A stretch of 64,000 nt of DNA from Deltaproteobacteria bacterium (GCA_016177765.1 JACOUP010000008.1:641165-705164), one strand, 5' to 3'. Shown: positions 2,539 through 22,125, counted from the first letter of the stretch. Notes: a model not told the origin generated them from the letters alone. Program-made: numbers and translations.

Positions 2539-3012
2539 TTACTTCTCGTACTTTTTCAGCCTTCTTTCCAGCTCTTCGATCTTTTTGTGAAGATTACGGA
2601 CTTCCGACTGGACGGAAGGGATAGAAGAAACAGATTCAATCGTCGTTTTCAACTTCTCATCAATAAAATCTTTAATGGTCCGTTCCGCCTCATCCTTCAC
2701 GTGGGAAATGGAACTGACGCCGGTTTCGATCGAATTATGGACAAAGGAGGCGATCTTTTCACCGCCGCTTCCGATGATATTCTTGAGGGTTTCGATGGGT
2801 AAAAGACTCCTCTTCTTTTTTTCCTGTTCAAAAATAATCTGTGTCAGGGTTACCGAGGTCATGTCTTCGCCGTTCTTGTTGTCGACCACTTTGATATCTT
2901 CCCCCGCACGGATGAGCCCGGCAATATCGTCCAGGGTAACATAGCAACTCTGCGCCGTATCATAGAGCTTGCGGTTCTGGTACCGTTTGATGGTCCTCGT
3001 TTTTAAGGTCAT
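2539..3012 (-). CDS. phaR: Polyhydroxyalkanoate synthesis repressor PhaR.
   Basis: The N-terminus IKRYQNRKLYDTAQSCYVTLDDIAGLI...GEDMTSVTLTQIIFEQE matches the conserved PhaR DNA-binding domain nearly residue for residue. Confidence 0.8.
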   Translation of the reverse strand: MTLKTRTIKRYQNRKLYDTAQSCYVTLDDIAGLIRAGEDIKVVDNKNGEDMTSVTLTQIIFEQEKKKRSLLPIETLKNIIGSGGEKIASFVHNSIETGVSSISHVKDEAERTIKDFIDEKLKTTIESVSSIPSVQSEVRNLHKKIEELERRLKKYEK

Positions 3013-3461
3013 GAGGCGATTTTCTCCGCGCGCAGGGAAGAGGATTGCAGAGCCCCTTCCTCCCCCGCATTTTCCAAAACCTTCTTGATTGACAAAAGGA
3101 CATCCATCTTGAAGCGATTTTTTTCGGTGGCACTCTCTTGCGAGGTTCGCGCCAGCTCTCCATTGATAACACCAATAATGGAAGAAATGACCTTCTGGCG
3201 GATCTCGTGAAATTCCTCTTCCTCTTCATGCGGAATCTGGCTCACGACCCGATGAAGGACTCTTTGAAGGTTGGCAATCAAAAAACCTAAGGCCTGTTTA
3301 TTGTCTATCGTTGTCTGATTAACTGTCCGGCCGGCGAGCTCGAGCACCTCCCCGACAGCCAGAAGGATCTCCCGCGTTGCCTTTAAAACATGGGCCCTGG
3401 CGTTACCCAGTTTGGAAAAATTCCCCAAAAGAAGGGTCAGATCGAGGAGGGAGGCGGCCAT
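3009..3461 (-). CDS. Phasin-like, predicted all-helical protein.
   Basis: A 150-aa low-complexity amphipathic helical protein with no enzymatic motif. It is translationally coupled (4-nt overlap) to phaR. The phasin call is by context only. Confidence 0.35.
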   Translation of the reverse strand: MAASLLDLTLLLGNFSKLGNARAHVLKATREILLAVGEVLELAGRTVNQTTIDNKQALGFLIANLQRVLHRVVSQIPHEEEEEFHEIRQKVISSIIGVINGELARTSQESATEKNRFKMDVLLSIKKVLENAGEEGALQSSSLRAEKIAS

Positions 3462-3688
3462 TATTTCGGCTCCTCGTCCTTTTTCTCCGGTTTGTTGTCG
3501 GGTTGGACCGCCTTCTTGAAATTTTTGAGGGCCTGCCCTATCGCCCCGCCGACGGTCGGCAGTTTACCGGCCCCGAACACCACCAGGACAATGACCAGGA
3601 TAATGGCCAGTTCCCACGGCCCCAGCCCGGCAAAACCGGCCTGGCGGATTGGAAAATCAATGGCAAGACTTCCAAGGAGGTGCGTCAT
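3461..3688 (-). CDS. tatA: Sec-independent translocase subunit TatA/E, with an unusual ~20-aa N-terminal extension.
   Basis: The core LGPWELAIILVIVLVVFGAGKLPTVGGAIGQALKNFKK fits the TatA TM helix, hinge and amphipathic helix. There is no in-frame ATG/GTG/TTG between the ATG at 3688 and the TM helix. Confidence 0.7.
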   Translation of the reverse strand: MTHLLGSLAIDFPIRQAGFAGLGPWELAIILVIVLVVFGAGKLPTVGGAIGQALKNFKKAVQPDNKPEKKDEEPK

Positions 3689-3742
3689 CAATTAAGCCCG
3701 ACCGCGTCGTAACATACCCCCCCAAGGGGGGCAACCGTTTTT

Positions 3743-6700
3743 TTATTGGTCTATCAGGGAACAGCCAGCTAGTGGCAGAGCGCCTCCTGAACCAGGGTTT
3801 CCTCCAGAACCTGTTGTGGAACCTTCATTATCATTGGCACCACTGGTAGTATCACCGGCAGGGGCCGATTGGTCCGGCTCCGGTTTTTTGGGCTCCTCAG
3901 GGATTCCCGGCCCTGGATTTTCCCCATCCTTGACGCAATCCCCCTGGGTATCCCCTTGGGCCAAATGGGCTTCCACGGCGGCCGAAGCGACGCAAATTTC
4001 GTGTTGTTGTGGCCTCCCTGCCAAGTGGCAAAGGGTAACCTTCCCCTCTTTGCAGACCGGTTTTCCGCTCCCTTTATCCTCGTGATTACAGGGATCCCCC
4101 TCGTTGTCCTGTAGTGAACCGTCGGCGCAATCGTTGTGGTTGCAAACGTCCCCGACGGCGTCCTCGAGTGAAAGATCGGGGCAATCGTTAGGAACACAGG
4201 CATCGCCGACCGCATCCCCCGGCGAACCGTCAAAACAGTCTTCATGATTGCAAACATCCCCAGCCCCATCCTGAAGCGAACCGTCGGCGCAATCATTGTG
4301 GAGACAAGGATCCCCCAGATTGTCGCGCAATGTGAAGTCGGAACAGTCGGAATGATTGCAGGCATCCCCCACGGTATCGCGCAAACTCAAGTCGGGACAG
4401 TCATCGTGGTTACAAGGGTCTCCCACTTCATCATTCGGTTCGAAGGGACAGGAGTCTGACTCGTCGGCCACGCCATCCGCATCCTCGTCATGATTGCAGG
4501 GATCGCTGACAAGGTCGTACGGGGTCCCGTTCGGACAGTCACTATGATTACAGGGATCCCCCTCGTTATCCTGTAGCGAACCATCAACACAATCCGTATG
4601 ATTACAGGGCTCGCCGACCGCATCCTGCAATGAGAGGTCGGCACAATCGTTGTGGACACAGGCCTCCCCTGTTGCATCGACCGGGGAACCATCGGCACAA
4701 TCCCCATGATTACAGGGCTCGCCGGCAACATCTTGCAGGGAACCGTCGGCACAATCGTTATGCAGGCAGGAATCTCCGGTGCTATCCTGGGCAGAACCGT
4801 CGGCACAATCATTGTGATCGCAAACATTACCCGCGGTATCCTGTTCCGAGAAATCAGGACAATCATTGTGAATACAAGGATCTCCTAACGGGTCTTCCAG
4901 AGAGAGGTCGGCGCAATCATTATGAACGCAGGAATCCCCAACCCCGTCCTGCCAGGAACCATCCTCACAATCGTCGTGATTACACGCATCACCCACACTA
5001 TCTTGTGAAGAACGATCGGCACAGTCGTTTGGATTGCAGGGATCACCGATCCCATCATCGGCTATAAAAGGGCAGGAATCATCGCTGTCGGCGATGCCAT
5101 CGTTATCTTCGTCATGATCGCAGACCTCCCCCACACCATCTTGTGCCGACCGATCAGAACAGTCGTTGTGATTGCAGGCGTCCCCCACAGAGTCGCGCGT
5201 TGAGAGATCAGAGCAATCATTGTGGTTGCAAGGATCCCCCACGGCGTCATTCAGATCAAACGGGCAGGCATCCGAAATGTCCGGAGCCCCATCATTGTCG
5301 TCATCCGGCTCGCAAACATCGCCGTAGGGATCGCCATCAAAATTGGCCTGATCGGGATTCGGCTGTAACAGGCAATTATCTTGATCAAACGGAACCTCAT
5401 CCCCGTCTCCGTCATAGTCTGCCGGGAGATCGCTCAAGTTCAGGATCTGTCCGGTGTCGGTCAAGACAAAGATAAGGTTGGCGCTCCCGGCAGACCATGG
5501 ATCAGGCAGGGCTCCGGTTAAAGTCGTACCATTGATGTTCAAAGAACGGTGGATTATCGCCTGATCCCCGTCACGAGAAGCGGCCCAATCGCTTTCACCG
5601 GCGCTGGCATAAACCTTATGGTAGGAGGCATTCATCTGATAAATGCCGGGCGACACACCCTCAAAGAGCACCGGGAAGCCACTCCGCCCGTCATTCCACC
5701 ATTCATCCGACGACGACATATCGGAAATAACGGAAAGCACTGGCCGGTCGGAGGTCACGTAGATATCAAATGTTCCTGGGTTGGCCCCTGGATAGACCAT
5801 TGGCACCGCCGGTTGAACAGGGAGGGAGGTGGCATCCAGCACCCGTCCATCCGGCATCACCATCACCATCAAATGCTGATGGCCCGAATCATCCATCAGA
5901 GGATGCGTCAACGGAACCCCATTGGCCGAAAGCCCCCAGAGAATGGTCTGATTATCGGTCATCCAACCGGATTCCGGACAGCTCCCCTCCTCGTTGGAAC
6001 AGGCCGACACCCGATAGAGTCCCGGCGGGACGTTATCAAAGACCGCCTCCGGGCCGGAGTGGTACTCGGCCGCCTCCCACCAAACCGGTCCATGCATTTC
6101 AGAGATAGCGAAGCTGAGCGACTTCTCACCGGTGATCACGACCCGCAGCGTCCCTGGGGTACTCCCTTGAACAGTGTCCACGACGCCATCCTGGTTCAGA
6201 TCGGGGGGGACCGAAGAGGCGTCATGCGGGTTTGTCGCAAAATAAATCTCCGTGAAGTCATAAAAACCGTCATTGTCATCATCCCAGTCGACATTGTCCC
6301 CCAAACCGTCCCCATCGGTATCGACCGATTCGTTCGGGTCAAGTGGGAATTGATCGGAGTTATCCGCCACACCATCTCCATCTTCATCATGGTTGCAGGG
6401 ATCACCAATCCCATCCTGGGTCGAGAGATCGGCACAGTCGTTATGATTACAGGCATCACCAATCGCATCACGCACTGAAAGGTCGGCACAGTCATTGTGA
6501 TTACAGGCATCACCAACGGTATCGGGCATCGAACGATCGGCACAGTCGTTGTGGTTGCAGGCATCACCAATCGCATCCTGGGCTGAAAGATCAGAGCAAT
6601 CACCGTGATTACAGGCATCACCAATCGCATCCTGGGCTGAAAGATCAGAGCAATCACCGTGATTACAGGGCTCACCAACGGCATCTTGAGCCGAGAGATC

Positions 6701-7105
6701 AGAGCAGTCATTGTGGTTGCAGGCATCACCGATCCCATCCTGGGCCGAAAGATCGGCACAGTCATTGTGATTACAAGCATCACCAACGGTATCGGACATC
6801 GAACGATCGGCACAATCGTTGTGATTACAGGGATCACCAACATTATCGTTCGGGTCAAACGGGCAGGCGTCTTGAAGATCCGGAATGCCATCGCCATCGG
6901 TATCGAGCGTTGGCGGAATCGTCACGGTCTTCTGAAGACGATTCCCCATCGCATCGTAGGTGTAGGTCACGGTAATGCCGTTGCTGTAGGTGATTCCTGT
7001 AATCCGACCGAGATCGTCACGGGCATAAGAAAGCGTGGCCGCCTCTCCCCCATGCGGGTTCAGGAAAAGAAAAAACAGGGCCATGGCAAAAAATTTCTTC
7101 ATCAT
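3743..7105 (-). CDS. Secreted 1,120-aa repeat protein. It has a signal peptide, a single YD repeat, about 30 Asp/Cys-rich 18-aa repeats (thrombospondin type 3-like), a ~340-aa central beta-rich domain and a Cys-rich C-terminus.
   Basis: The N-terminus MMKKFFAMALFFLFLNPHGGEAA is a Sec signal. YTYDAMGNRL is a YD motif. The repeat consensus is D-x-x-G-D-x-C-N-H-N-D-C-x-D-x-S-x-x. The ATG lies 4 nt after the stop of the upstream RHS gene. Confidence 0.8.
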   Translation of the reverse strand: MMKKFFAMALFFLFLNPHGGEAATLSYARDDLGRITGITYSNGITVTYTYDAMGNRLQKTVTIPPTLDTDGDGIPDLQDACPFDPNDNVGDPCNHNDCADRSMSDTVGDACNHNDCADLSAQDGIGDACNHNDCSDLSAQDAVGEPCNHGDCSDLSAQDAIGDACNHGDCSDLSAQDAIGDACNHNDCADRSMPDTVGDACNHNDCADLSVRDAIGDACNHNDCADLSTQDGIGDPCNHDEDGDGVADNSDQFPLDPNESVDTDGDGLGDNVDWDDDNDGFYDFTEIYFATNPHDASSVPPDLNQDGVVDTVQGSTPGTLRVVITGEKSLSFAISEMHGPVWWEAAEYHSGPEAVFDNVPPGLYRVSACSNEEGSCPESGWMTDNQTILWGLSANGVPLTHPLMDDSGHQHLMVMVMPDGRVLDATSLPVQPAVPMVYPGANPGTFDIYVTSDRPVLSVISDMSSSDEWWNDGRSGFPVLFEGVSPGIYQMNASYHKVYASAGESDWAASRDGDQAIIHRSLNINGTTLTGALPDPWSAGSANLIFVLTDTGQILNLSDLPADYDGDGDEVPFDQDNCLLQPNPDQANFDGDPYGDVCEPDDDNDGAPDISDACPFDLNDAVGDPCNHNDCSDLSTRDSVGDACNHNDCSDRSAQDGVGEVCDHDEDNDGIADSDDSCPFIADDGIGDPCNPNDCADRSSQDSVGDACNHDDCEDGSWQDGVGDSCVHNDCADLSLEDPLGDPCIHNDCPDFSEQDTAGNVCDHNDCADGSAQDSTGDSCLHNDCADGSLQDVAGEPCNHGDCADGSPVDATGEACVHNDCADLSLQDAVGEPCNHTDCVDGSLQDNEGDPCNHSDCPNGTPYDLVSDPCNHDEDADGVADESDSCPFEPNDEVGDPCNHDDCPDLSLRDTVGDACNHSDCSDFTLRDNLGDPCLHNDCADGSLQDGAGDVCNHEDCFDGSPGDAVGDACVPNDCPDLSLEDAVGDVCNHNDCADGSLQDNEGDPCNHEDKGSGKPVCKEGKVTLCHLAGRPQQHEICVASAAVEAHLAQGDTQGDCVKDGENPGPGIPEEPKKPEPDQSAPAGDTTSGANDNEGSTTGSGGNPGSGGALPLAGCSLIDQ
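4080..5330 (-). repeat. Second coding array of the same 18-codon repeat, with about 22 units.
   Basis: The repeated CNH(N/G/D)DC(A/S/P)D(L/G/R)S peptide units and the matching DNA periodicity are visible. Confidence 0.8.
6340..6880 (-). repeat. First coding array of degenerate 54-bp (18-codon) repeats inside the 3743-7105 gene.
   Basis: Recurrent ...catcaccaa(t/c)cgcatc...gcacagtc(a/g)ttgtg(g/a)tt(a/g)cagg... units are visible in the DNA. The antisense frames stay open because the repeats are periodic. Confidence 0.85.
6560..6667 (-). repeat. A perfect 2x54-bp tandem duplication.
   Basis: The unit ggcatcaccaatcgcatcctgggctgaaagatcagagcaatcaccgtgattaca occurs twice back to back with 108/108 identity. 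Confidence 0.9.
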
Positions 7106-7109
7106 GAAC

Positions 7110-10100
7110 TCACTTGGCTCCTGAAGCCCTCCCTCCCCCTAAATCCGGGGTCGACCAAAGATTGTTAACCATCCTGTTAGCCGATGGGTTGACAACAAGA
7201 CTGCCATAAAATTCATTGGGGACAAACGGGGCGTTCCTGATCGTCCCGCCAGCCGCCTGAACCGTCGACTGGAAGCTCGGCGAGACCCCCTTGCCGTACT
7301 CCACATAATAATTCGGTACGATAGTTCCCGGATAACTGGTCTTCAATTGGGTATCGGAAAGATAGGACCCTGGTGTGGTCAGGATCTGGAGCTGTTTGCC
7401 GTCATGCCCTGAAGGGGCAGATTTTAAGGTGGAAGCCCCCGATTTGATCTCATAGAGGTCGATCGTCCCTCCCTGCAGAGATTGGGGATTCAAAGAATCA
7501 GGCTCATACCACCCCGGCTGACCAGGGGCATAAACCTTGTAACGGCCGTTAGTATTCGGTTCAAGACCCATATTATTCAATGTGCCCTCTTCAACATAAT
7601 TACCACGCGCCTTGGGATCACCAATCTTGATCTTGCTAGAGAGATATCCAGTCCCGCCTCCTATCACCGTACTCATTCCTATCGAGTTGTAATTGTAGTC
7701 AAACGGTTCTTGGACACCTGTAGCCATATTCAACGTCTGTGTTGAGGCATCACTCACACCCCCTCCCACAGCGCCGCCGACGATCACATTCCCCCCGGTG
7801 ACAAGAGTCGTCACACCACCGGCACAGCCGCCAATGGTGTTCCCCGCGTAAGTCTGCCAGCTGGATACGGAGGGTTCCCAATTCCAGATGCTTGTTGCTA
7901 TGTCGGCAACGCCGGTTCCAACGAACCCAAAGGCTCCTCCGACCGCACAAGCTCCAGCAATAGCCTCTACCACGCAACCATCCCAAAGGCAGTTTCCGGA
8001 GGGATCGATATTCTGAACCGGATCCCCCTTCCCATAGGCATAAAGATTCAAACCGGCGGAATATCCCAACGGATCCCTCGAAATAAACCGTCCGGCGACC
8101 GGATCATAGTAGCGGGCCCGCATGGAGTAGAGACCGGTCGGGTCATTCTGGACACCAAACTTTCCGACAAACTGGAATGGATTAGCGGTTGTCCCGGTTT
8201 TTCTGTTCGGTCGGCCTAGCTCGTCATAGAGGTACTGATCCGTCACCGTCCCGGAAGGGTCAGAGAGGGCGACCGTTGAACCAAGCGGGTCATACTGGTA
8301 GAATCGTACCTGCGATCCATCAGCACTGATCTGACTTGCCAGCCCCAGGCCATAAACATAATAATTCTGTATCGCACCGGCGCTATCCGCCTCCGCAACG
8401 ACATCAGGAAGCCCCCGGTTGTCATCAACCAGGAATTGCGTCGTCTCGCCATTTTGTGTGAGAGAGGTCCGGTTGCCGTCACCATCATAACCGAGGACCA
8501 CCGTCCCTGCAGCGCTGGTCACCTCACTCAACTGGTCTTTGGCATCGAAGGAATAGGAAATGCCGCCGCCAGAGATCAGATTCCCGTTCAAATCATAATC
8601 AAAATTGAGCGGACCCAGTGTCAGGAGTTCATTCTCCTCATTGTAGGTGGCGCCCACCTCCTCCGGGCTAATCCAGGGAGTCAGCGGTTCTTCCTTTTCA
8701 ACACGGGTCCGGCGGCCCAGTTGATCAAGCGTATAATGATAACTGGAAAGAACTGACCCATCGGCCTTGTCGTTGGTGAGATCGGTCAGGCGTGAGGTCT
8801 CATCGTAACCATAGGTTGTCGTCAATCCGTTGGGGAGGGTCACCTCGTTCAGCCGGCCGCCAGTGTCGTAGCGGTAATGAGTGACCTGATCCAGCCAATC
8901 AGTCACCTGCGTCAACTGACGTGAGGGATTGTAGACATACTGGACCGTATGGTCTCCCGGATAGGTGAGTTGGGTCAGGAGTCCGGTCCGGTCGTAGCCA
9001 TAACTGAGATTGAAACCCCTCGGGTCGACAAAGGAGGTGGGACGACCAGCGGCATCATAGGTATACCGAGCCGTTCCCAAGGAATCGGTCCGGGTCAAAC
9101 GGTGACCGTTGGCATCATAAGTAGAGTCGACCGTCGTCCCGTCAGCCAGATGGATGGTGGAAAGGTGTCCCGCGGTATTGTAATCATAAAGGGTCGTCTG
9201 CCCCTTGCCATCCACCATCCGACTCAAACGCCCGGCCAGATCATAAAAATACTGTTCCTCCTCGCCCAAGGTGTTGGTTTGGCCAGTCTTGCGACCCGAC
9301 GAATCGTAGGTGAAGGTCGTCTCATGGCTGGCGGCATTGGTCAGACGGGTCAGATGGCCAGTGCGATTGTAGGCAAAGGAGGTGGTCTGACCCATGGAGT
9401 CAATGAGTGATGTCAACCGGCCGAGGGGATCGTAAGAAAATTGAGTGACGTGTCCACCGGCATCTGTCATTTGTGTTAACAAACCACTGACCGGATCGTA
9501 CTGCCGCACTGTTCTATTTCCCAAGGGGTCGGTCGCCTCCGTCAGCCGACCCAGCAAATCATAACGAGTACTCCAGGTCTGACCGGAGGAGTCGGTTCGT
9601 GAGGTCACGTTCCCTTCCTGATCATAAACAAAACTACTGACCCGGCCGGAGGGATCGGTCATGGAAGAAAGATTCCCCGCCGCATCGTAGGTCATCCGGA
9701 GCGTCCGGTTCTCGGCATCGGTCACAGCAGTTTTTCTGTTCAAGGCATCATAGGTAAACGTGGTCTGGTTCCCCAACGGGTCCTGAATGGACTCCATAAA
9801 GTCGTTGGCGTTCCAGCGGAGCTCGATCGCATTGCCGTTTCTGTCAATGACCCGCGCTGGGTTCCCATTGGTGTCATATTCATAACGAACCACCGAGCCG
9901 TCCGGCGACGTCACTGAATTGAGCTGGTCGTCCGGATTATAGGCAAAGGTGGTGGTCTGGCCGAGTGGATTGGTCATGGTGGCGACACGATCGGCGCCAT
10001 CATAAGTCTGCCGTGTCACCCCTCCGGTCGGATCGGTCGTTGTGATCAATCGCCCCTGATTGTCGTATTCAAAAGTGGTTGTCTGGCCTTCCGGATCGGT

Positions 10101-13100
10101 AAAGGCAGTGGCCTGACCAAATTCGTTGTAGGTATAACGACTTTCAACCGTTTGCTCCCCAACAACCTCCCAAACACGTGTCAGATTCCCCTCGCTATCA
10201 TATTCCAGGTTCCGCTCATGACCGGTTGGTTCGACGGTCTTGACCAGATCATCGGTTTCCAGATTATATTCAAACCGGGTCACATTGCCAAGCGGATCAG
10301 TGAGGGAAACCAGGTTCCCCCGTGCATCGTAGGTGGAACTTAACCGGTTTCCTTTTCGGTCCGTCATCCCGGAACGGAGGCTATCAACATTGTATTCGTA
10401 CAGGATCGGACGGCCCAGCGGATCCTGGCTCTCCACAACCCTTAAAGAATCATCATAGACCTGACGGAGCATCTGACCGAGCGGGTCGGTGACCAAAACC
10501 CGCCCCGGCTGTCCGTCGACCTCGTACAAAATCTGCGTCCGGTGGACCCGGCCGTCTTCCTGGGCCACCACCCTGGAGAGATCATCGTAACTGTTCTTGA
10601 CCAACCTGTTGCCGCGTGGGTCGGTCACCTCCGTCATCTGATGGAGAGGGTCATACCGGTAGGTATAACTTCCGGACCGGACATCAGTGAAACCGGTCAG
10701 GTCCTCTCCTGTGTACCCGAATTGGACCGACCGGCCGGCAGGGTCGGTGACCGAGGCGATCTTGAACTCTTCGTCACTCGCGTAGGCGAAAACAAGGCTC
10801 CTGCCGGTGGAGCTGGTCACCTGTGTCAAACGATTCTTCAGATCGTAAGAGAGGGAGAGTCTATTGCCCTTCCGGTCAGTGACCTGATCCAGACGGCCGT
10901 TGGCCAAGAAGTGAAGGGTGGAATGGTCCTTGGTGGCCAGGGTGAAACCATTGTCATCATTCTTGATCAGTGAAGAAAAGATCCCGGGAGGAGACTGATA
11001 GGTCCCGTCACCGTTCGAGGCGTACGTCTCCGAACGACCATCCCCCCACCGGATCTGTACCGACCCATCCCCCCATTCGGTCGCCACAATATTATAGTTG
11101 TGCGTCCAGCCAAACCCAAGGGGCCCCACATATTTGTCCTGACTATTGTAGGTCCGGGCAAAATTGAGGCCAAATCCGCGCCCTGAAAGGAGCAGGTCTG
11201 TGTGATGGTAGGCGTAATTTCCCGTTGCCGTGTTGACGGGGTCGCTGACATTCTGGACCGTCGGACTCTTGTTGCCGAATTTTTCATTCGCCATAGAGCG
11301 ACAGATGGCGTCACAGTAAGGCGGCTGTTGGACGCTTAAGGTGACAGGAACCGTCGCGGTACCGTCGGATGGATCATTACTGCTGGCCACTTGAAGAACT
11401 GTATCTACGGTTGCCGCTGGTTGAAGGTCTGCGGTGTTAACCGTTACCTGAAGTTGATCGGTCTGGCCGGCCGCCAAGAGATGGGTTGACCGGACAAGAG
11501 TATCAGTTTCGCCGCCGTTTTTCACCACAGTCATCCATGGGGTTGGAGTTGTGGCACTCACGTTGTAGTAAAGTGGACCGGTCCCGGTATTGGTAACCGT
11601 CACCTGCTGGGTCTGGTTGACCGTTCCTTTCAAAACCGTGATCTGGATCGGACTCCCGGTGAAGACAAAATTAGCATTGTCATCCGGGTTGCAGACATCG
11701 TTGATCCCGTCATTCGTATAAAAGGGACATAAATCACTCCCATCCGTAATGCCGTCCCCATCTTCATCATGATTGCAGGCATCCCCATAAGAATCGCGCA
11801 GGGAGAGGTTGGGGCAATCGTTATGACTACAAACATCACCGGTATCATCCTCGGGCGAACCGTCGGCGCAATCACTGTGGTTGCAGGCATCCCCAACATT
11901 ATCCTGGAGCGAGAGGTCGGCGCAATCACTGTGGTTGCAAGGGGCACCAACCGTATCCGGATCGGCACAATCGCCATGATCACAGGGGTCTCCAGCCGCA
12001 TCCTGATTAGAACCATCAGGACAATCGTTATGCACGCAGGCATCCCCCCAGGAGTCGCGCGGGGAAAAATCCGGACAATCGTTATGCACACAAGCATCTC
12101 CAACGGAATCCCTTGCCGTAAAATCGCCGCAGTCGTTGTGGTTGCAGGGATCGCCAATCGAATCATCCGGATCAAAGGGGCAACTGTCGGCAGTGTCAAC
12201 ACGGCCATCGCCGTCTTCATTGTGGTTACAGGCATCGCCGATATTATCCTTGAGACTCCCATTGGGACAAACGTCACGGTTCACATTGATGAAGTGGCTA
12301 CCAGTGGCCCCGTTACTATCATAACAAATGATGCCGATCGAATTCCAACCCGGCACCAGTTGAACATCGGCGTTGAAGGAGGCGGAACCACCGGAAAGGG
12401 ACCGGCTACTGTTCCAACCAGCGGTGCTGTTTTGAACAAGCACCGAACTCAGGTTGCTGTTAGGGTCACTACAAGTCCCGTCGATTGTTACATACGGGGC
12501 TGTTGTTACCGTGCCATCCGATGGTGAAATGATCAGGGCTGTCGGGGGATTGTTGGGGGGTGATTCCGTCGTAAAGGCCCACCTCGTCCAATTACGACTT
12601 TGGGCCTCGCCGTCATACCCAAAAACCTGCCAATAGTAGGTGGTGTTATAGTTAAGGCTGATCCCGTTGGCCGAGGGTTGCCAGGCCGTCGCCGTGCTGT
12701 TGGTCCAACCGTTCATTAAAGGGGAACTGAAGTCGCTATTATCATCCAACTGGATATAGTAATTTACAATGCTGTCGCCCGCATCCGGATCACTACAGGC
12801 CCAATCCAGAGTTACCGATCGGCTGACACCGGTCGCCCCGTGGGAGGGAGAGGTCAGGGTACAGTCATTGGGGGGATTGTTTACAGCAGTCACAGTCAAC
12901 TGCAGATTGTAACTGGGGATCTGACCATCATTGCCATAGTCTTCAACTTTGACAAGATAGGTATCCGGATTTAATCGTCGCGTGATGCGCGAATAGTAGT
13001 TGCCTCCCCCGATGTCGTCATTTGTGGTAATGACACCGCCGGCGGCCTGTTCGAGGGTCAGGACCGTGTCGTAGCCGCTCGCCCCCGATGTCTCGATCGT

Positions 13101-14036
13101 GACATCCAAAGTTGTGTCGAGTCGGAACCAGATCCAGTCAACATCACCCGTCGGAACAATGCTGTGGGTTGTTGTCGTATTGAGAGACTGTGGTTTGGCC
13201 GTTAAGGAAGTATTGTCCGGCTCATACGAATCTTGGGGCAAGACCACATTGATCGAGGCCCAAACCGTTGAAGAACCACCAACCAATATTGTCGACCCCC
13301 CTGAAGTTTTTAACTGCCAGTCATCCCGGTAGGTCCCAGAAGTGGCCGGGGTCCGCATCGAAACACTAAAGACGACGCCGGAACCCGGATTCACGCTAAA
13401 TCCGATCGGGATATTATTAGTACTCGTGGACATCGAACCGCTGACGTAGCGGAGGTAATAGTTGCTCTGCCAGACGGTGGTCCCGTTATTGTAAATCGTC
13501 CACTGCTTGGTAAAATTGGTACTGGTATTAAGGGTAGTTCCGTCGGGATGGGATTCACCACCAAAAGAGGCTGAGGTGAGGTTGGGGACGAGGGAATAGT
13601 TCTGGACATAAGATGCCGGTGGGCCCACATACCTCGTGGTGCTCAGGGTGTTATAACCGCTGGCGCTCACACTCACAGGGTAGGTGTAGTTTGACGGCAA
13701 GGTCAGGGACCAGCTACCGGCCGAATTCGTCGTGGTCATCGCACCGTAGGGACAACTGTTGCCAAAACTAACCGAGGCCCCCGAAATACCAACGCCGCTT
13801 TGGGAGTTGGTTACCGCCCCCCCGATGGTCGACATCTGAACATTGGAACAGGTTAAGGTCTGCGCCTGGAGAGGGACATCTTGATACTCGGAGGAAGGGG
13901 GCAGAGCCGGGGTGGCACTGCCAACAACGGGAGTGGATTCTATCACCTCATCCGATTTTAAATCGAGGTTCTCAAGCCCTCCGCAGGAAGCGAGGAGGAG
14001 AAAAAGGGAGAGGAATAATAAAACCACTTTCCTCAT
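7110..14036 (-). CDS. Giant RHS/YD-repeat lipoprotein with teneurin/Tc-toxin-like architecture. Domain order: lipobox signal, carboxypeptidase-regulatory-like, Ig-like and FN3 domains, PPC domain, thrombospondin type 3-like repeats, RHS plug and YD shell, RHS core, and a ~290-aa uncharacterised C-terminal domain.
   Basis: The MRKVVLLFLSLFLLLASCGG lipobox is preceded by GGGGG 6 nt before ATG 14036. The ORF-track start at 14072 is TTG. The PPC motif (DWIWFRL...GNYYSRI...YNLQLTV), many YD repeats and the terminal core YYDPVAGRFISRDPLGYSAGLNLYAYGKGDPVQNIDPSGN are all present. The C-terminal domain that follows is Gly-zipper rich. Confidence 0.9.
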   Translation of the reverse strand: MRKVVLLFLSLFLLLASCGGLENLDLKSDEVIESTPVVGSATPALPPSSEYQDVPLQAQTLTCSNVQMSTIGGAVTNSQSGVGISGASVSFGNSCPYGAMTTTNSAGSWSLTLPSNYTYPVSVSASGYNTLSTTRYVGPPASYVQNYSLVPNLTSASFGGESHPDGTTLNTSTNFTKQWTIYNNGTTVWQSNYYLRYVSGSMSTSTNNIPIGFSVNPGSGVVFSVSMRTPATSGTYRDDWQLKTSGGSTILVGGSSTVWASINVVLPQDSYEPDNTSLTAKPQSLNTTTTHSIVPTGDVDWIWFRLDTTLDVTIETSGASGYDTVLTLEQAAGGVITTNDDIGGGNYYSRITRRLNPDTYLVKVEDYGNDGQIPSYNLQLTVTAVNNPPNDCTLTSPSHGATGVSRSVTLDWACSDPDAGDSIVNYYIQLDDNSDFSSPLMNGWTNSTATAWQPSANGISLNYNTTYYWQVFGYDGEAQSRNWTRWAFTTESPPNNPPTALIISPSDGTVTTAPYVTIDGTCSDPNSNLSSVLVQNSTAGWNSSRSLSGGSASFNADVQLVPGWNSIGIICYDSNGATGSHFINVNRDVCPNGSLKDNIGDACNHNEDGDGRVDTADSCPFDPDDSIGDPCNHNDCGDFTARDSVGDACVHNDCPDFSPRDSWGDACVHNDCPDGSNQDAAGDPCDHGDCADPDTVGAPCNHSDCADLSLQDNVGDACNHSDCADGSPEDDTGDVCSHNDCPNLSLRDSYGDACNHDEDGDGITDGSDLCPFYTNDGINDVCNPDDNANFVFTGSPIQITVLKGTVNQTQQVTVTNTGTGPLYYNVSATTPTPWMTVVKNGGETDTLVRSTHLLAAGQTDQLQVTVNTADLQPAATVDTVLQVASSNDPSDGTATVPVTLSVQQPPYCDAICRSMANEKFGNKSPTVQNVSDPVNTATGNYAYHHTDLLLSGRGFGLNFARTYNSQDKYVGPLGFGWTHNYNIVATEWGDGSVQIRWGDGRSETYASNGDGTYQSPPGIFSSLIKNDDNGFTLATKDHSTLHFLANGRLDQVTDRKGNRLSLSYDLKNRLTQVTSSTGRSLVFAYASDEEFKIASVTDPAGRSVQFGYTGEDLTGFTDVRSGSYTYRYDPLHQMTEVTDPRGNRLVKNSYDDLSRVVAQEDGRVHRTQILYEVDGQPGRVLVTDPLGQMLRQVYDDSLRVVESQDPLGRPILYEYNVDSLRSGMTDRKGNRLSSTYDARGNLVSLTDPLGNVTRFEYNLETDDLVKTVEPTGHERNLEYDSEGNLTRVWEVVGEQTVESRYTYNEFGQATAFTDPEGQTTTFEYDNQGRLITTTDPTGGVTRQTYDGADRVATMTNPLGQTTTFAYNPDDQLNSVTSPDGSVVRYEYDTNGNPARVIDRNGNAIELRWNANDFMESIQDPLGNQTTFTYDALNRKTAVTDAENRTLRMTYDAAGNLSSMTDPSGRVSSFVYDQEGNVTSRTDSSGQTWSTRYDLLGRLTEATDPLGNRTVRQYDPVSGLLTQMTDAGGHVTQFSYDPLGRLTSLIDSMGQTTSFAYNRTGHLTRLTNAASHETTFTYDSSGRKTGQTNTLGEEEQYFYDLAGRLSRMVDGKGQTTLYDYNTAGHLSTIHLADGTTVDSTYDANGHRLTRTDSLGTARYTYDAAGRPTSFVDPRGFNLSYGYDRTGLLTQLTYPGDHTVQYVYNPSRQLTQVTDWLDQVTHYRYDTGGRLNEVTLPNGLTTTYGYDETSRLTDLTNDKADGSVLSSYHYTLDQLGRRTRVEKEEPLTPWISPEEVGATYNEENELLTLGPLNFDYDLNGNLISGGGISYSFDAKDQLSEVTSAAGTVVLGYDGDGNRTSLTQNGETTQFLVDDNRGLPDVVAEADSAGAIQNYYVYGLGLASQISADGSQVRFYQYDPLGSTVALSDPSGTVTDQYLYDELGRPNRKTGTTANPFQFVGKFGVQNDPTGLYSMRARYYDPVAGRFISRDPLGYSAGLNLYAYGKGDPVQNIDPSGNCLWDGCVVEAIAGACAVGGAFGFVGTGVADIATSIWNWEPSVSSWQTYAGNTIGGCAGGVTTLVTGGNVIVGGAVGGGVSDASTQTLNMATGVQEPFDYNYNSIGMSTVIGGGTGYLSSKIKIGDPKARGNYVEEGTLNNMGLEPNTNGRYKVYAPGQPGWYEPDSLNPQSLQGGTIDLYEIKSGASTLKSAPSGHDGKQLQILTTPGSYLSDTQLKTSYPGTIVPNYYVEYGKGVSPSFQSTVQAAGGTIRNAPFVPNEFYGSLVVNPSANRMVNNLWSTPDLGGGRASGAK
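7113..7995 (-). other. Variable C-terminal, putative toxin/effector domain of the RHS protein.
   Basis: This ~293-aa region lies after the DPxG core boundary. It contains GxxxG-rich stretches (GGCAGGVTTLVTGGNVIVGGAVGGGVS) and matches no catalytic motif I recognise. Confidence 0.6.
11750..12260 (-). repeat. Thrombospondin type 3-like 18-codon repeat array inside the RHS gene.
   Basis: It carries the same D-x-C-N-H-N-D-C repeat family as the downstream gene, here about 9 units. Confidence 0.75.
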
Positions 14037-14111
14037 TAACAAGACCCCCGAGGCGACGGGTGCTTCACCCAAGGCCCGTGGAAGGAGCCTAAGTCAGAGA
14101 AGACACAGTGT

Positions 14112-18967: not shown

Positions 18968-19717
18968 CTAGACCCTCGGCAAAAACAGTTCCAGAAAGTG
19001 TGAGATGGCGGTCTTGGCGGAATTGGCGAATTTCCGGAAGCGGACAAGTTCAAAAATTTTTCCCGGTTCCTGAAGCAGGAACTGGACCGCCCTGATCGGA
19101 CTGATGGACAGATCGGGCCTCAAGAACTGTTCAAAATCGGGGAGCGCCTGCGACACCGGATCGAAAATCGCCCGGACCGCCAGAAACGGCAATTTTTTCC
19201 TGACCGCCCAACGGGCCACCTCGGCCGTTTCCATTTCCAAGGCCAGAACCTCAGCCCGCGTCCCCAAAAACGCCTTTTCGTGTGGTTTCGCAATAATCTT
19301 GTCGACGGTCAACAGAGAGCCCTGATGGTACGGCAGTTTTCCCGCCTCAGCCACTTCTTTGGCCAGATTGAGCCATTTTTGAGTGGATCGGGCCACGACC
19401 TCAACATCCGGATTCAGGACACGGACATCGGTCGCCAAGATGAGATCACCCGAGGTGATGGCCGGTTGAGTCGCCCCGGCACAACCGGTCGAAAGGAGCA
19501 GACTGGGGGCATACCGTTCAAAAAGGAATGAAAGCGCCTTGAAGGTATTCCCCCGCCCCATACCGGTCCGGACGAGGAGAATAGGAACCCGCTGAAACTC
19601 CCCTTCGACGATCGTCAATGGGGGTTGGTTCACGACATGCCGTGGAGTCACCCGCCCGGTAAATCCCTTTAGTTCATCACGCAGGGCGGCGATGATGGCG
19701 ATCGGCTGAGGCGTCAC
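18968..19717 (-). CDS. Nucleoside phosphorylase family protein, MTA/SAH nucleosidase- or futalosine hydrolase (MqnB)-like.
   Basis: IAIIAALRDELKG...STGCAGA...GDLILATDV follows the PNP_UDP_1 family pattern. Confidence 0.55.
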   Translation of the reverse strand: MTPQPIAIIAALRDELKGFTGRVTPRHVVNQPPLTIVEGEFQRVPILLVRTGMGRGNTFKALSFLFERYAPSLLLSTGCAGATQPAITSGDLILATDVRVLNPDVEVVARSTQKWLNLAKEVAEAGKLPYHQGSLLTVDKIIAKPHEKAFLGTRAEVLALEMETAEVARWAVRKKLPFLAVRAIFDPVSQALPDFEQFLRPDLSISPIRAVQFLLQEPGKIFELVRFRKFANSAKTAISHFLELFLPRV

Positions 19718-21288
19718 AAGACTCTCTGGTATTGTTCAATGGTCTGCTTCCAAACCGGCACACCGCAGTAACGATCCCCTTCGGGGCAATACGGGGTCTC
19801 CCCCGCCCTCTTTCGCAGATAGCAGGGGGCCAGGATATGCCCGGCAATCCGGGGATGGATCTCTTTGACCTGACTGATTTCATCGATGGTCGCAAAAAAG
19901 ATTTCCTCTTGGCTGTCGTAACAGGCCCGCGTCCGCCACTTATGGTGGAGATTCAAGAGATCCCCCGACTCCGTGAAGCGGATCGGAAAGGCGTTGGGCA
20001 GGAGGTAGAGCGCCTTTTCCGGTTCAACCCCGTCGTCCAGCAACCGATTGATCTCGGAAAAAAGACCACTCATTGTTTTTTCAAAAAGTTCCCGGGCCGG
20101 GTCAAACTCCTTAACCAGCATCGGGAGGAGATAATCGGGACGACCGGTGTAATGGGTCTTGAGGATCGGTCGCGAAGCGGGCGTCATCCGGTGGCGTTGG
20201 TCCTGAGAATCGGCGGTGTGGGAGATTTTCTTCTGAAAGGTATAATGCGGGTGCACCATCGCCCGGGAGAGTTTGCTCAAGCTGTTAATATTTAAGGTGT
20301 CGCCAAGGTAGGAATTTCGGGCCGGGTCCATCGCGAGGGTGATCGCCTCGTCATCGGAGAGTTTTTCGCGTGTCAGCCCAAAGAGCTGCCGGACCGACTG
20401 GGCCAGACTCTCTTCGGCATTTTTTTTATAGTCCACCAATTTAGAGACATGCCCTTCCAGTGATCGGTCAAACTCGTCGATAAAATTCTGCGAGGAGTTC
20501 AAACGATCGGTGGTTTGAAACTGTTCTAAAATTTTAAACTCCGGTGTCTCCTCCAGCGGCAGGGGGTCTTTCAAATCCTTTTCAAAATCAGGATCGATCT
20601 TTTTCACCTCCTCAACCATCCTCTCCACCACGTAACGCTGTTCTTCTGGCGTATCAAAGAGCTGGCAGAGGCGCCAGTAGCGGATCAGCGTCAAGGCGCT
20701 GACCGAATGATACATATAGGCATGGATCGCCACCGGCAGGAGGTAGCGGGCCACCTCGTACCCCCTTTTCTTCAGGGCGTTTTCGTATTTCCCTGCAACC
20801 TTTTCCCTCTGGGGAAAGATCTTGTAAAACCGACGCCGGATCTCCGGCAAAAGGATCTCAATCATCTGGTTGTATTTTTCCATAAGGCCGTCAACCACCG
20901 TCACATACCGCTCGGCCTGTTTTTCCGAAAGTCCAGGGATGGTGTAATGCCCACGGGCCACCTTCACATACCGCTGACTCACCTGTTCCGAATTATAATA
21001 AGGATGGCTGTGCAAAAAAGACCAGATGAACTGCCGGCTGATCTTGTCCAGGGCAAAGACAAAGGTGGCATGCTGGCGTGTCGTGAGGTGCCCGGCATGG
21101 AGGGTCGATTGGGCGATCTTGTCCCGCAACACTAATGCCTTTTCATCCTTGGTGACGTCGTCAAGGCTCACAATCCCCCTGGAGGAATAACAGGTCCGGG
21201 CGGTCGCCACCGCCAGGTTGTACGGTTGCTCAATCACCCCTTCAAGGGTCACCACCGGCGGTTCGGAAAGGAAGGGGGAATTTGTCAT
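19714..21288 (-). CDS. Divergent ThyX-fold (flavin-dependent thymidylate synthase-like) protein, 525 aa.
   Basis: GHLTTRQHATFVFAL...SRQFIWSFLHSHPYYNSEQVSQRY corresponds to the ThyX segment GHETPFEH.VFTF....ARQ..RHR.......S.RY, but RHR reads HSH. The ORF-track start (21543) would overlap the divergent neighbour. I re-derived the start at MTNSPFL (21288). Confidence 0.5.
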   Translation of the reverse strand: MTNSPFLSEPPVVTLEGVIEQPYNLAVATARTCYSSRGIVSLDDVTKDEKALVLRDKIAQSTLHAGHLTTRQHATFVFALDKISRQFIWSFLHSHPYYNSEQVSQRYVKVARGHYTIPGLSEKQAERYVTVVDGLMEKYNQMIEILLPEIRRRFYKIFPQREKVAGKYENALKKRGYEVARYLLPVAIHAYMYHSVSALTLIRYWRLCQLFDTPEEQRYVVERMVEEVKKIDPDFEKDLKDPLPLEETPEFKILEQFQTTDRLNSSQNFIDEFDRSLEGHVSKLVDYKKNAEESLAQSVRQLFGLTREKLSDDEAITLAMDPARNSYLGDTLNINSLSKLSRAMVHPHYTFQKKISHTADSQDQRHRMTPASRPILKTHYTGRPDYLLPMLVKEFDPARELFEKTMSGLFSEINRLLDDGVEPEKALYLLPNAFPIRFTESGDLLNLHHKWRTRACYDSQEEIFFATIDEISQVKEIHPRIAGHILAPCYLRKRAGETPYCPEGDRYCGVPVWKQTIEQYQRVL

Positions 21289-21399
21289 TGGGGTCGTAAT
21301 CCTAGTCTCGGCTACCGGGATTGTCCACCGGCTATTTTGATGGCAACTTTGCCCCTCAACTGCCGATAATAACGACATCTTTTGAGAAAGGGGTTTACC
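21289..21399. promoter_or_regulatory. Divergent intergenic region between the ThyX-like operon and the DUF4116 operon.
   Basis: This 111 nt lies between two re-derived start codons. It contains TTGATG and GATAAT hexamers, although their spacing is non-ideal. Confidence 0.25.
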
Positions 21400-22125
21400 A
21401 TGGGACTCCAGGGTTTTAAGGATGCTCAGATCCGACAAAAAGTGGAAGCCGCAATCCACCAGGTTTGCGGTGACCCTCACCAAAATTGGTGGTGTGACCC
21501 GGCGACCTACACCAATGCCAACCTCACCGAGGTTGCCAATCATCCGAATCTTTTCTGCTCTTCTGCCTACAAAGATAGCGGGAAGGGGCTCTGCGACATT
21601 TTAAAGGATGGAGATGGGGGAGATCAGGCGTCAGCGGTTGATGATATAATCCAAAGATGGGCCGGAGTCAGTCTCTACATCCAAGGCCTGAGGATCGGCA
21701 CAAGGATCGAGGCGTTCGGGCAGGCCTTTAAAAGCTACGCGGTCCAAATGGCTGATAAAAATTATAAAGCGGACCCTTCCCAAAAAATGAAATACCTTAA
21801 AATGATGGAGGCCTCTCGCCTCGAGATAGAGGCAATCTTAAACGGCCTCGATGCCCCCTTCGGAGAAGCCAGTGATGCGGCAGATTCCATGACCCAACAA
21901 TTCAGGGAGGCCAACCGACCGACCGGTGGTTCAACAGGCTGTCTGTTCCCCCCATTTGCCTCTCTTTTCCGATCGGTCCGGACAACCGCCCCTGATGAGG
22001 GGGTCTCTTTTGAACAGTTGCCGGCAATCGTCCGGAAGGGACTGGACCGACAGAAGGAACCCTTCGATGTCCTCTTGAGGGGAGAGATCCCGGTGCCGGC
22101 CGAGGTCAAAAAACCTGCCCCATGA
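21400..22125 (+). CDS. Hypothetical protein of 241 aa with no recognisable domain.
   Basis: A continuous ORF with AAAGGGG before ATG 21400. Its stop overlaps the next gene's start (ATGA), so the two are translationally coupled. Confidence 0.5.
   Translation: MGLQGFKDAQIRQKVEAAIHQVCGDPHQNWWCDPATYTNANLTEVANHPNLFCSSAYKDSGKGLCDILKDGDGGDQASAVDDIIQRWAGVSLYIQGLRIGTRIEAFGQAFKSYAVQMADKNYKADPSQKMKYLKMMEASRLEIEAILNGLDAPFGEASDAADSMTQQFREANRPTGGSTGCLFPPFASLFRSVRTTAPDEGVSFEQLPAIVRKGLDRQKEPFDVLLRGEIPVPAEVKKPAP

Follow-up and report, generated by a model that had tools for sequence, protein, structure and literature searches.

A window of 64,000 nucleotides from a Deltaproteobacteria bacterium (GCA_016177765.1 JACOUP010000008.1:641165-705164; positions are counted from its first letter) contains a gene for an RHS lipoprotein and, immediately downstream, a gene for a large predicted secreted protein, which we call the partner. 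The two genes lie in close succession on one strand and their products have an 18-residue repeat (the unit) in common. This repeat is real, very rare and unannotated, yet it can be recognised as a known one, the thrombospondin type 3 (TSP3) repeat, shortened by a deletion. The partner belongs to a larger class of proteins that are encoded beside RHS genes and begin with a leader of two tyrosine-aspartate (YD) repeats. The explanation we favour, with modest confidence, is that an RHS lipoprotein and a Sec-exported accessory protein are produced from one operon, that contracted TSP3 repeats provide disulfide-stapled, probably Ca2+-dependent stalks, and that the YD leader links the accessory to the RHS protein.

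The unit is defined by the pattern C-x4-C-x12-C at an exact spacing of 18 residues. This occurs 26 times in the partner, compared with a mean of 0.26 and a maximum of three in 2000 shuffles of the same protein. The copies are distributed as four arrays of 8, 2, 10 and 6 units and, in array 1, the DNA has a period of 54 nucleotides (8.2 copies, 77% matches). An earlier interpretation made from the DNA alone (the sequence-only reading) had reported about 30 copies; the repeat itself stands, with a strict count of 26. It had also placed the same repeat in the RHS protein, where six strict and two irregular copies are indeed present. The consensus of 65 units from six proteins is C-[NVI]-H-N-D-C-x-D-x-[ST]-x-x-D-x-[VI]-G-D-[AP]. 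Both Cys are invariant, while the His is replaced by Pro in four of the 65 units (CNPNDC, CVPNDC, CAPNDC).

Judged by alignment, the unit is a bacterial TSP3 repeat that has lost its DxDxDGxxDxxD calcium loop through a 10-residue deletion and has kept the 14-residue Cys-bounded acidic loop. This conclusion is based on the MAFFT alignment of the unit with the 28-residue canonical repeats of the same proteins, which requires a single 10-residue gap and gives 42-58% identity over the aligned positions, and on the alternation of short and canonical forms, in register, inside one array. In unit-bearing proteins the canonical repeat reads C-N-H-DEDGDGxxDxxDx-C-P-F-x-P-N-D-x-x-G-D-P-C. The C-x12-C loops of the unit are in register with its C-P-F-x-P-N-D-x-x-G-D-P-C loops, and consecutive loops are separated by linkers of either 4 or 15 residues. 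The resemblance to TSP3 suggested by the sequence-only reading is thus borne out, while the calcium-binding beta-roll that it also considered is not indicated, the unit being a contracted TSP3 loop. An RTX-like beta-roll was rejected separately: the GGxGxD nonapeptide is absent and Cys residues occur throughout.

Like the TSP3 families in Pfam (PF02412 TSP_3 and PF18884 TSP3_bac), the unit forms tandem repeats that are rich in Asp, stapled by Cys and almost devoid of regular secondary structure, and it keeps the segment C-P-x-x-x-[ND]-D-x-x-G-D-x-C. It differs in its period (18 rather than 28 residues) and in carrying N-H-N-D at the position of the canonical 15-residue DxDxDGxxDxxD calcium loop, around which the family model is built. 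The second Cys of the unit lies at the position of the canonical third Asp.

The array boundaries give an indication of how the Cys residues are paired. All true array ends examined begin with a loop-opening Cys (CPF.. or CPDGS..). At the other end, except in P0018, the last Cys is always a loop-closing one, after which comes NH[DE][DE] (for example, VHDDF, NPDDN, NHEDK and NHDED); array 1 of the partner terminates in this way, the closing Cys being followed by NHDEDGDG. The two-loop arrays of proteins P0124 and P0127 contain exactly four Cys and the three-loop array of P0125 contains six. Because array ends, Cys counts and linker lengths all fit pairing inside the 14-residue loop, we infer that a disulfide closes each loop rather than forming within C-N-H-N-D-C. 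The total number of Cys in the partner is odd (69), and the Cys of the C-terminal LAGC is a candidate for the unpaired residue. Binding of Ca2+ by the loop would follow from the properties of the parent repeat.

The sequence-only reading could not assign the repeat to a named family, and our searches agree: the unit has no match in Pfam, NCBIfam or the PDB. Two segments composed purely of units (148 and 184 residues) show no TSP_3 or TSP3_bac match in Pfam even at E <= 10. Their sole Pfam match is to zf-MIZ (SP-RING/MIZ zinc finger, PF02891); this is below threshold (27.0 bits against 33.5) and confined to short 13-residue stretches on C-x-H-x-x-C-x-D. In the NCBIfam scans no model was matched by the unit, and TIGR04201 (Myxococcales Cys-rich repeat) was matched neither by the partner nor by a pure-unit segment. 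A PDB search with the unit profile retrieved no thrombospondin, the best E-value being 2.2, to esterases. A likeness of D-C-x-D-x-S to the calcium cage of LDL-receptor class A repeats was also considered and was discarded since the Pfam scan gave no Ldl_recept_a match.

When 1.84 billion representative proteins were scanned exhaustively for the unit profile with HMMER, only 15 were identified at E <= 1e-3, including the RHS protein of the window itself. A word-indexed search of 5.8 billion sequences with a 54-column unit profile returned nothing at E <= 1e-3, although such a short profile probably cannot reach significance. At the DNA level, the pattern CNHNDC-x12-CxHxDC was found at four loci in three metagenome-assembled genomes among 185,579 species genomes searched. 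Judging by the record names, at least two of these three unit-bearing genomes appear to be derived from groundwater.

The unit is also present in unrelated secreted enzymes and other proteins, and no RHS neighbour is present in the short DNA stretches available around these. P0122 has a lipase-like domain followed by eight units; P0018 has an undefined region of about 500 residues with Cys-containing repeats, then 12 units; P0124 has two units followed by TSP3 loops; P0125 and P0127 have two or three loops; and P0068 is a unit-bearing PP2C protein in a WXG100/FtsK neighbourhood. Since in these unrelated proteins the unit joins other domains or precedes a C-terminal anchor, it is most likely a spacer or stalk.

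The partner is a modular protein whose segments and coordinates are given in the table. Its N-terminus, MMKKFFAMALFFLFLNPHGGEA/A (the slash marks the cleavage-like site), resembles a Sec signal, as the sequence-only reading had proposed, with a mean Kyte-Doolittle hydropathy of 2.8 over residues 5-15. That reading had also described the protein as made almost entirely of the 18-residue repeat. This must be corrected: strict units account for 468 residues (42%) and canonical TSP3 repeats for another 18%, and there is a non-repetitive central region (268 residues, 293-560) as well as a C-terminal part (115 residues). Pfam TSP_3 matches the whole partner with 50.6 bits (cutoff 25) in five stretches, all of them canonical copies, and residues 562-690 alone match thrombospondin-2, thrombospondin-1 and COMP in the PDB (E 2e-10 to 4e-7). 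The first canonical repeat is 71% identical to the corresponding junction in the RHS protein. The two domains of the central region are 29% identical to each other (E 3e-13); the region has no Pfam match and no homolog was found in a search of 5.8 billion proteins. AlphaFold, given the central region as a single sequence, predicts all-beta secondary structure with a predicted local distance difference test (pLDDT) score of 45.6, which is too weak for a fold search. The C-terminal Cys-containing segment, KVTLCHLAGRPQQHEICVASAAVEAHLAQGDTQGDC, has four Cys, matches no Pfam family and is missing from the homolog of locus L008 described below.

Features of the RHS-partner gene pair in the window. 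ORF, open reading frame; Ig, immunoglobulin.
Feature	Position	Strand	Remarks
Upstream RHS lipoprotein gene	7110..14036	(-)	2308 aa from M13 (probable start), lipobox LLASC
Loop array within the RHS protein	11694..12305	(-)	between N-terminal Ig-like domains and BACON-like/DUF6531 region
Gene junction	7106..7112	(-)	RHS TGA (7110-7112), 4-nt spacer GTTC, partner ATG at 7105
Partner gene, predicted Sec-exported modular protein	3743..7105	(-)	1120 aa; intact ORF, ATG start
Predicted signal peptide, aa 1-23 (MMKKFFAMALFFLFLNPHGGEAA)	7037..7105	(-)	basic n-region, 11-residue hydrophobic core, G-E-A/A cleavage-like site, read from sequence
Two-YD-repeat leader, aa 24-64	6914..7036	(-)	Pfam RHS_repeat and TIGR01643 above cutoffs
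First canonical bacterial TSP3 repeat (LDTDGDGIPDLQDACPFDPNDNVGDP), opening array 1	6830..6913	(-)	
Unit array 1	6398..6829	(-)	8 x 18 aa (CNHNDCxDxSxxDxxGDx)
Canonical, mostly Cys-free TSP3 calcium loops closing array 1	6230..6397	(-)	
Central non-repeat region	5426..6229	(-)	two tandem beta-rich domains of about 120 aa
Eukaryote-like canonical TSP3 repeats	5231..5425	(-)	match solved structures
Unit arrays 2-4	4091..5230	(-)	2 + 10 + 6 units, two canonical 28-aa TSP3 repeats in between
C-terminal Cys-containing segment	3920..4090	(-)	includes KVTLCHLAGRPQQHEICVASAAVEAHLAQGDTQGDC
Pro/Gly/Ser-rich linker and tail	3746..3919	(-)	ends LPLAGCSLIDQ

The junction between the two genes is as the sequence-only reading had described it, with the RHS stop codon and the partner ATG separated by a four-nucleotide spacer. 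An AGGAG lies 12 nucleotides 5' of this ATG, and neither a promoter-like nor a terminator-like site is predicted there. Because of the short gap and the lack of such predicted sites, the two genes are probably co-transcribed as an operon. Translational coupling and a scaffold role for the toxin, both of which the sequence-only reading had proposed, may also be envisaged.

The RHS open reading frame (ORF) as found has 2320 codons (7110-14072); translation probably begins at M13 (14036), with the lipoprotein signal MRKVVLLFLSLFLLLASCGG. The sole annotation of the protein (NCBI MBI1909619.1) is "thrombospondin type 3 repeat-containing protein". It matches Pfam RHS_repeat (E 1e-122), DUF6531 and Rhs_assc_core, which indicates a complete shell. 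Beyond the DPxG...DPSG core end, its C-terminal 300 or so residues (7110-8010) include Gly-zipper-like hydrophobic stretches (GACAVGGAFGFVGTG; GGVTTLVTGGNVIVGGAVGGG). No Pfam family matches these 300 residues, and a PDB search with the C-terminal domain gave nothing significant.

At the N-terminus of the partner, the sequence-only reading had noted a single orphan YD motif. There are in fact two YD repeats: over residues 30-60 they match Pfam RHS_repeat (PF05593) with 30.2 bits (cutoff 22), TIGR01643 YD_repeat_2x is matched with 20.2 bits (cutoff 15.8), and together the two models extend over residues 30-62. Neither Rhs_assc_core (TIGR03696) nor a long shell-forming YD array was encountered in the partner; both are in the upstream gene. 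Sequence identity of the leader is 67-69% with those of P0109 and the L008 partner and 43% with that of the L006 partner, but with any repeat pair of the adjacent RHS protein it is only about 40%. It is closer to the leaders of other genomes than to the neighbouring RHS protein and is therefore not a recent local copy.

Two other loci, both related and from metagenome-assembled genomes, are informative. In L008 (Deltaproteobacteria bacterium RIFCSPHIGHO2_01_FULL_43_49) an RHS gene is followed by a gene for a 153-residue protein and then by one for a 719-residue YD-led protein. The latter shares its signal peptide, YD pair and first TSP3 repeat with the partner in the window; it contains some 30 units, and its tail is composed of G-G-C, a transmembrane segment and KKK. 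In L006 the RHS homolog P0123 (five loops) is followed by one ORF and then by a gene for a 1067-residue protein with the same leader, whose passenger includes DUF5122 propellers, He_PIG and TSP3 but no units. The sequence-only reading had presented the two genes as a two-component system built on a shared module. The arrangement of an RHS gene and a downstream YD-led protein does recur in L008 and L006, but the shared unit fails in L006. Because the RHS protein of L006 has the unit and its YD-led partner does not, the shared repeat does not define the pair. What is conserved between the two genes is their adjacency and the signal peptide with its two-YD-repeat leader.

A scan of metagenomes with the leader gave 79 loci, 23 of which were judged to have the match directly after the signal-like N-terminus of a separate ORF. 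A large RHS-like ORF was present in the same locus in 13 of these 23 (phmmer E 3e-14 to 1e-171 against the RHS core of the window), on the same strand in all but one of the 13 (12/13) and mostly directly adjacent. When only loci of at least 8 kb are considered, the figure is 8 of 10. The passengers of the leader are diverse: Collagen with Hint, PD40 propeller with InlB B-repeat, GLUG, Big_5/TIG, Ig-like domains and mini-proteins of 86-101 residues. A literature search for the YD leader, or for RHS together with TSP3, found nothing relevant.

Some of these passengers deserve mention in their own right. The mini-proteins (L039:3360-3623, L058:9923-10183, L015:114-419, L028:1160-1447 and one in L045) consist only of a signal peptide, the two YD repeats and a short conserved tail. 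There are two kinds of tail, one ending in KV(I/V)VLPLLGGLVLP and the other Trp-rich (W-G-x-G-V-W-G-C-x-x-W). In L015 and L028 the mini-protein gene lies directly upstream of a large RHS ORF. The product of L011:7477-8613 is YD-led and combines a collagen triple-helix region with a Hint (intein-like) domain behind it, and its gene lies directly upstream of an RHS-like ORF of 2127 residues.

Four unit-bearing proteins end in a Gly-Cys motif after a low-complexity linker: the partner (3746-3781), P0125, P0122 and the L008 partner (L008:5600-5732). Three of the tails have G-C-x-L-I in common (AGCSLIDQ-stop, GGCNLIIF-stop and GGCQLIKK..., the last being that of P0122, where a transmembrane segment and RRR come after it). 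The fourth is GGGGGGCAAS..., followed by a transmembrane segment and KKK. Two of the four stop five to six residues past the Cys and have no membrane segment. In the partner the stop is five residues past G-C and reading through it reveals no transmembrane or basic segment. Curated C-terminal sorting models gave no match at cutoff for the whole partner or for the isolated tails of P0122 and the L008 partner. The Gly-Cys tail could be a variant sorting or lipidation tag.

A similar combination is known from TraA of Myxococcus xanthus, in which Cys-rich tandem repeats are proposed to form a rigid stalk and a C-terminal tag contains an invariant Cys (PMC3325183). Like TraA (PA14, TIGR04201 repeats and MYXO-CTERM), the proteins described here are secreted and have Cys-rich repeats as a proposed stalk, and in the L008 homolog and P0122 the C-terminus consists of G-G-C, a transmembrane segment and a basic segment. 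However, the repeat is different, no NCBIfam match to TIGR04201 or TIGR03901 was obtained above cutoff, and the partner has no PA14 domain. Moreover, the partner has the G-C motif but neither the transmembrane segment nor the basic tail.

According to our favoured explanation, the partner would be exported by Sec to the cell envelope or surface and expressed on the same transcript as the upstream RHS lipoprotein. Each loop of 14 residues (C-x-D-x-S/T-x-x-D-x-x-G-D-x-C) would be closed by a disulfide and bind Ca2+ like the parent repeat, successive loops being joined in series by the tetrapeptide N-H-N-D. Runs of 2 to 10 loops, with canonical TSP3 repeats in between, would form stiff, extended, disulfide-stapled stalk segments that space out the YD leader, the two central beta domains and the Cys-containing C-terminal segment. 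In the RHS protein the same module would act as a spacer between the lipid-anchored N-terminal domains and the toxin cage. The signal peptide and two-YD-repeat leader would provide a functional, and possibly a physical, link between the partner and the RHS protein.

Physical docking of the partner on the RHS protein is suggested by analogy with Tc toxins, in which TcB and TcC, two separate polypeptides, jointly build one Rhs cocoon (PMC8765631). There, too, adjacent genes both carry RHS/YD repeats, and this provides a precedent for interaction between the YD repeats of separate chains. Unlike TcB or TcC, the partner has two YD repeats only, with no RHS core and no beta-propeller, and the RHS shell is already complete. 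The leader could in principle be a docking tag whose two N-terminal beta-hairpins join the YD sheet of the neighbouring RHS protein in trans after export, as in TcB-TcC, but we consider this specific form of the idea unlikely. A YD-containing frame directly after a full-length rhs gene is also a feature of orphan rhs C-terminal fragments. These, however, carry the core end and a toxin tip and have no signal peptide, whereas here the YD pair is N-terminal, follows a signal peptide and precedes non-toxin passengers.

Several observations weigh against the operon-and-stalk explanation. The partner does not have the transmembrane and basic tail of its L008 homolog and its final location is thus uncertain. 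The scan with a YD peptide may preferentially seed loci that also hold an RHS gene, which would inflate the proportion of 13 in 23. P0109 has the same leader, and no gene reads into its start within the 243 bp available upstream. Ca2+ binding is argued from descent only, and the deletion removes the canonical DxDxDG loop itself. Finally, AlphaFold applied to a six-unit segment, with a pseudo-alignment of 22 repeat windows, gave an unusable model (pLDDT 45.3) and so no structural support.

Some of these points would suit a partner that is an independent surface adhesin or matrix protein, which stands behind the RHS gene by chance, gained the same spacer module by domain shuffling within the genome and has no functional or physical partnership with the RHS protein. 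This is possible, if on the unlikely side. It is consistent with the occurrence of the unit as a general linker of unrelated secreted proteins, with the absence of a common unit from the RHS protein and YD-led neighbour of L006, and with the lack of an upstream gene for P0109 in the DNA available. In addition, NCBIfam names TSP3-rich MYXO-CTERM proteins such as MtsC as cell-cell cohesion proteins, although the match of the partner is weak (53.9 bits against a cutoff of 350). It does not readily account for a distance of only four nucleotides to the RHS stop codon, nor for the recurrence of the RHS and YD-led arrangement (L008, L006 and the metagenomic loci) in spite of unrelated passengers. 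The C-x-H-x-D-C motif could also be seen as a site for Zn, Cu or Fe, in a high-capacity extracytoplasmic metal-binding or redox protein: Cys, His, Asp and Cys are nearly invariant within six residues, zf-MIZ is matched weakly, and the host genomes are apparently from groundwater, where extracellular thiols could stay reduced. We regard this as improbable, since the replacement of His by Pro is a better fit for a turn residue than for a ligand, the zf-MIZ match is below cutoff, and array ends hold one of the two Cys of the motif, which is sensible for loop-closing disulfides and not for CxHxxC sites.

A gene located directly after an rhs gene, at the toxin-encoding end, might be expected to encode the immunity protein for the RHS C-terminal toxin, and there is no other small ORF between the two genes here, unlike in L008 and L006. 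It is nevertheless extremely improbable that a Sec-exported, repeat-rich protein of 1120 residues has this function. A separate gene lies between the RHS gene and the partner homolog in L008 (the 153-residue product) and a separate ORF is present in L006, and the passengers behind the YD leader are of all sorts.

It is no more credible that mis-joined repeats have produced an assembly artefact or a pseudogene. Two independent short-read (Logan) contigs that carry the RHS gene, L004 and L005, are 100% identical to the window and confirm the first 465 nucleotides of the partner, but both stop at position 6640, within unit array 1. The copy number of this array is supported by the present assembly alone. 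Looked up as an exact sequence, from either ATG start, the partner protein is absent from a collection of 15 billion proteins, probably because short-read contigs end inside array 1. On the other hand, the frame is open over 3.36 kb while the remaining frames have short ORFs only, the arrays are just 61-77% identical to one another at the DNA level, so that collapse is not expected, and the architecture is repeated in another genome, in the L008 homolog. Genes of this type will drop out of short-read assemblies, since contigs break within the arrays.

The flanks of the gene pair are ordinary housekeeping genes: rpe, fmt, def and priA upstream and tatA-like, PhaR-like and ArsA-like ATPase genes downstream. 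The tatA-like gene (which includes GLGPWELAIILVIVLVVFGAGKLP; about 3462-3700, (-)) is the next gene downstream of the partner, from which an 8-bp G/C hairpin without a U-run separates it, and its stop overlaps the start of an unannotated 150-residue ORF at 3009-3461. Neither this ORF nor the 153-residue gene product of L008 has a match in a Pfam scan. Elsewhere in the window, positions 22122-25091 (+) encode a 989-residue protein whose sole Pfam match, over the whole protein, is DUF4116 (E 5e-36). A ThyX (Thy1) ORF at 19714-21543 (-) has two Thy1 stretches, which suggests a tandem-fused ThyX; as called in the Logan contig it has 524 residues.

The repeat described here is unannotated and extremely rare. 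It provides a compact test case for the shortening of calcium-wire repeats into spacers, with a predictable disulfide topology. What had appeared to be an orphan YD motif is a conserved N-terminal leader of many unrelated secreted proteins encoded beside Sec-type or lipoprotein-type RHS genes. If the leader were a docking tag, RHS cages would be platforms for the display of interchangeable accessories (stalks, propellers, Ig arrays, collagen-Hint proteins and 90-residue mini-proteins), and the partner in the window would be one such accessory, a contracted-TSP3 stalk that sets the reach of the complex. The display and delivery of RHS proteins that do not depend on a type VI secretion system are poorly understood, and a recurrent accessory gene offers a concrete experimental handle on them.

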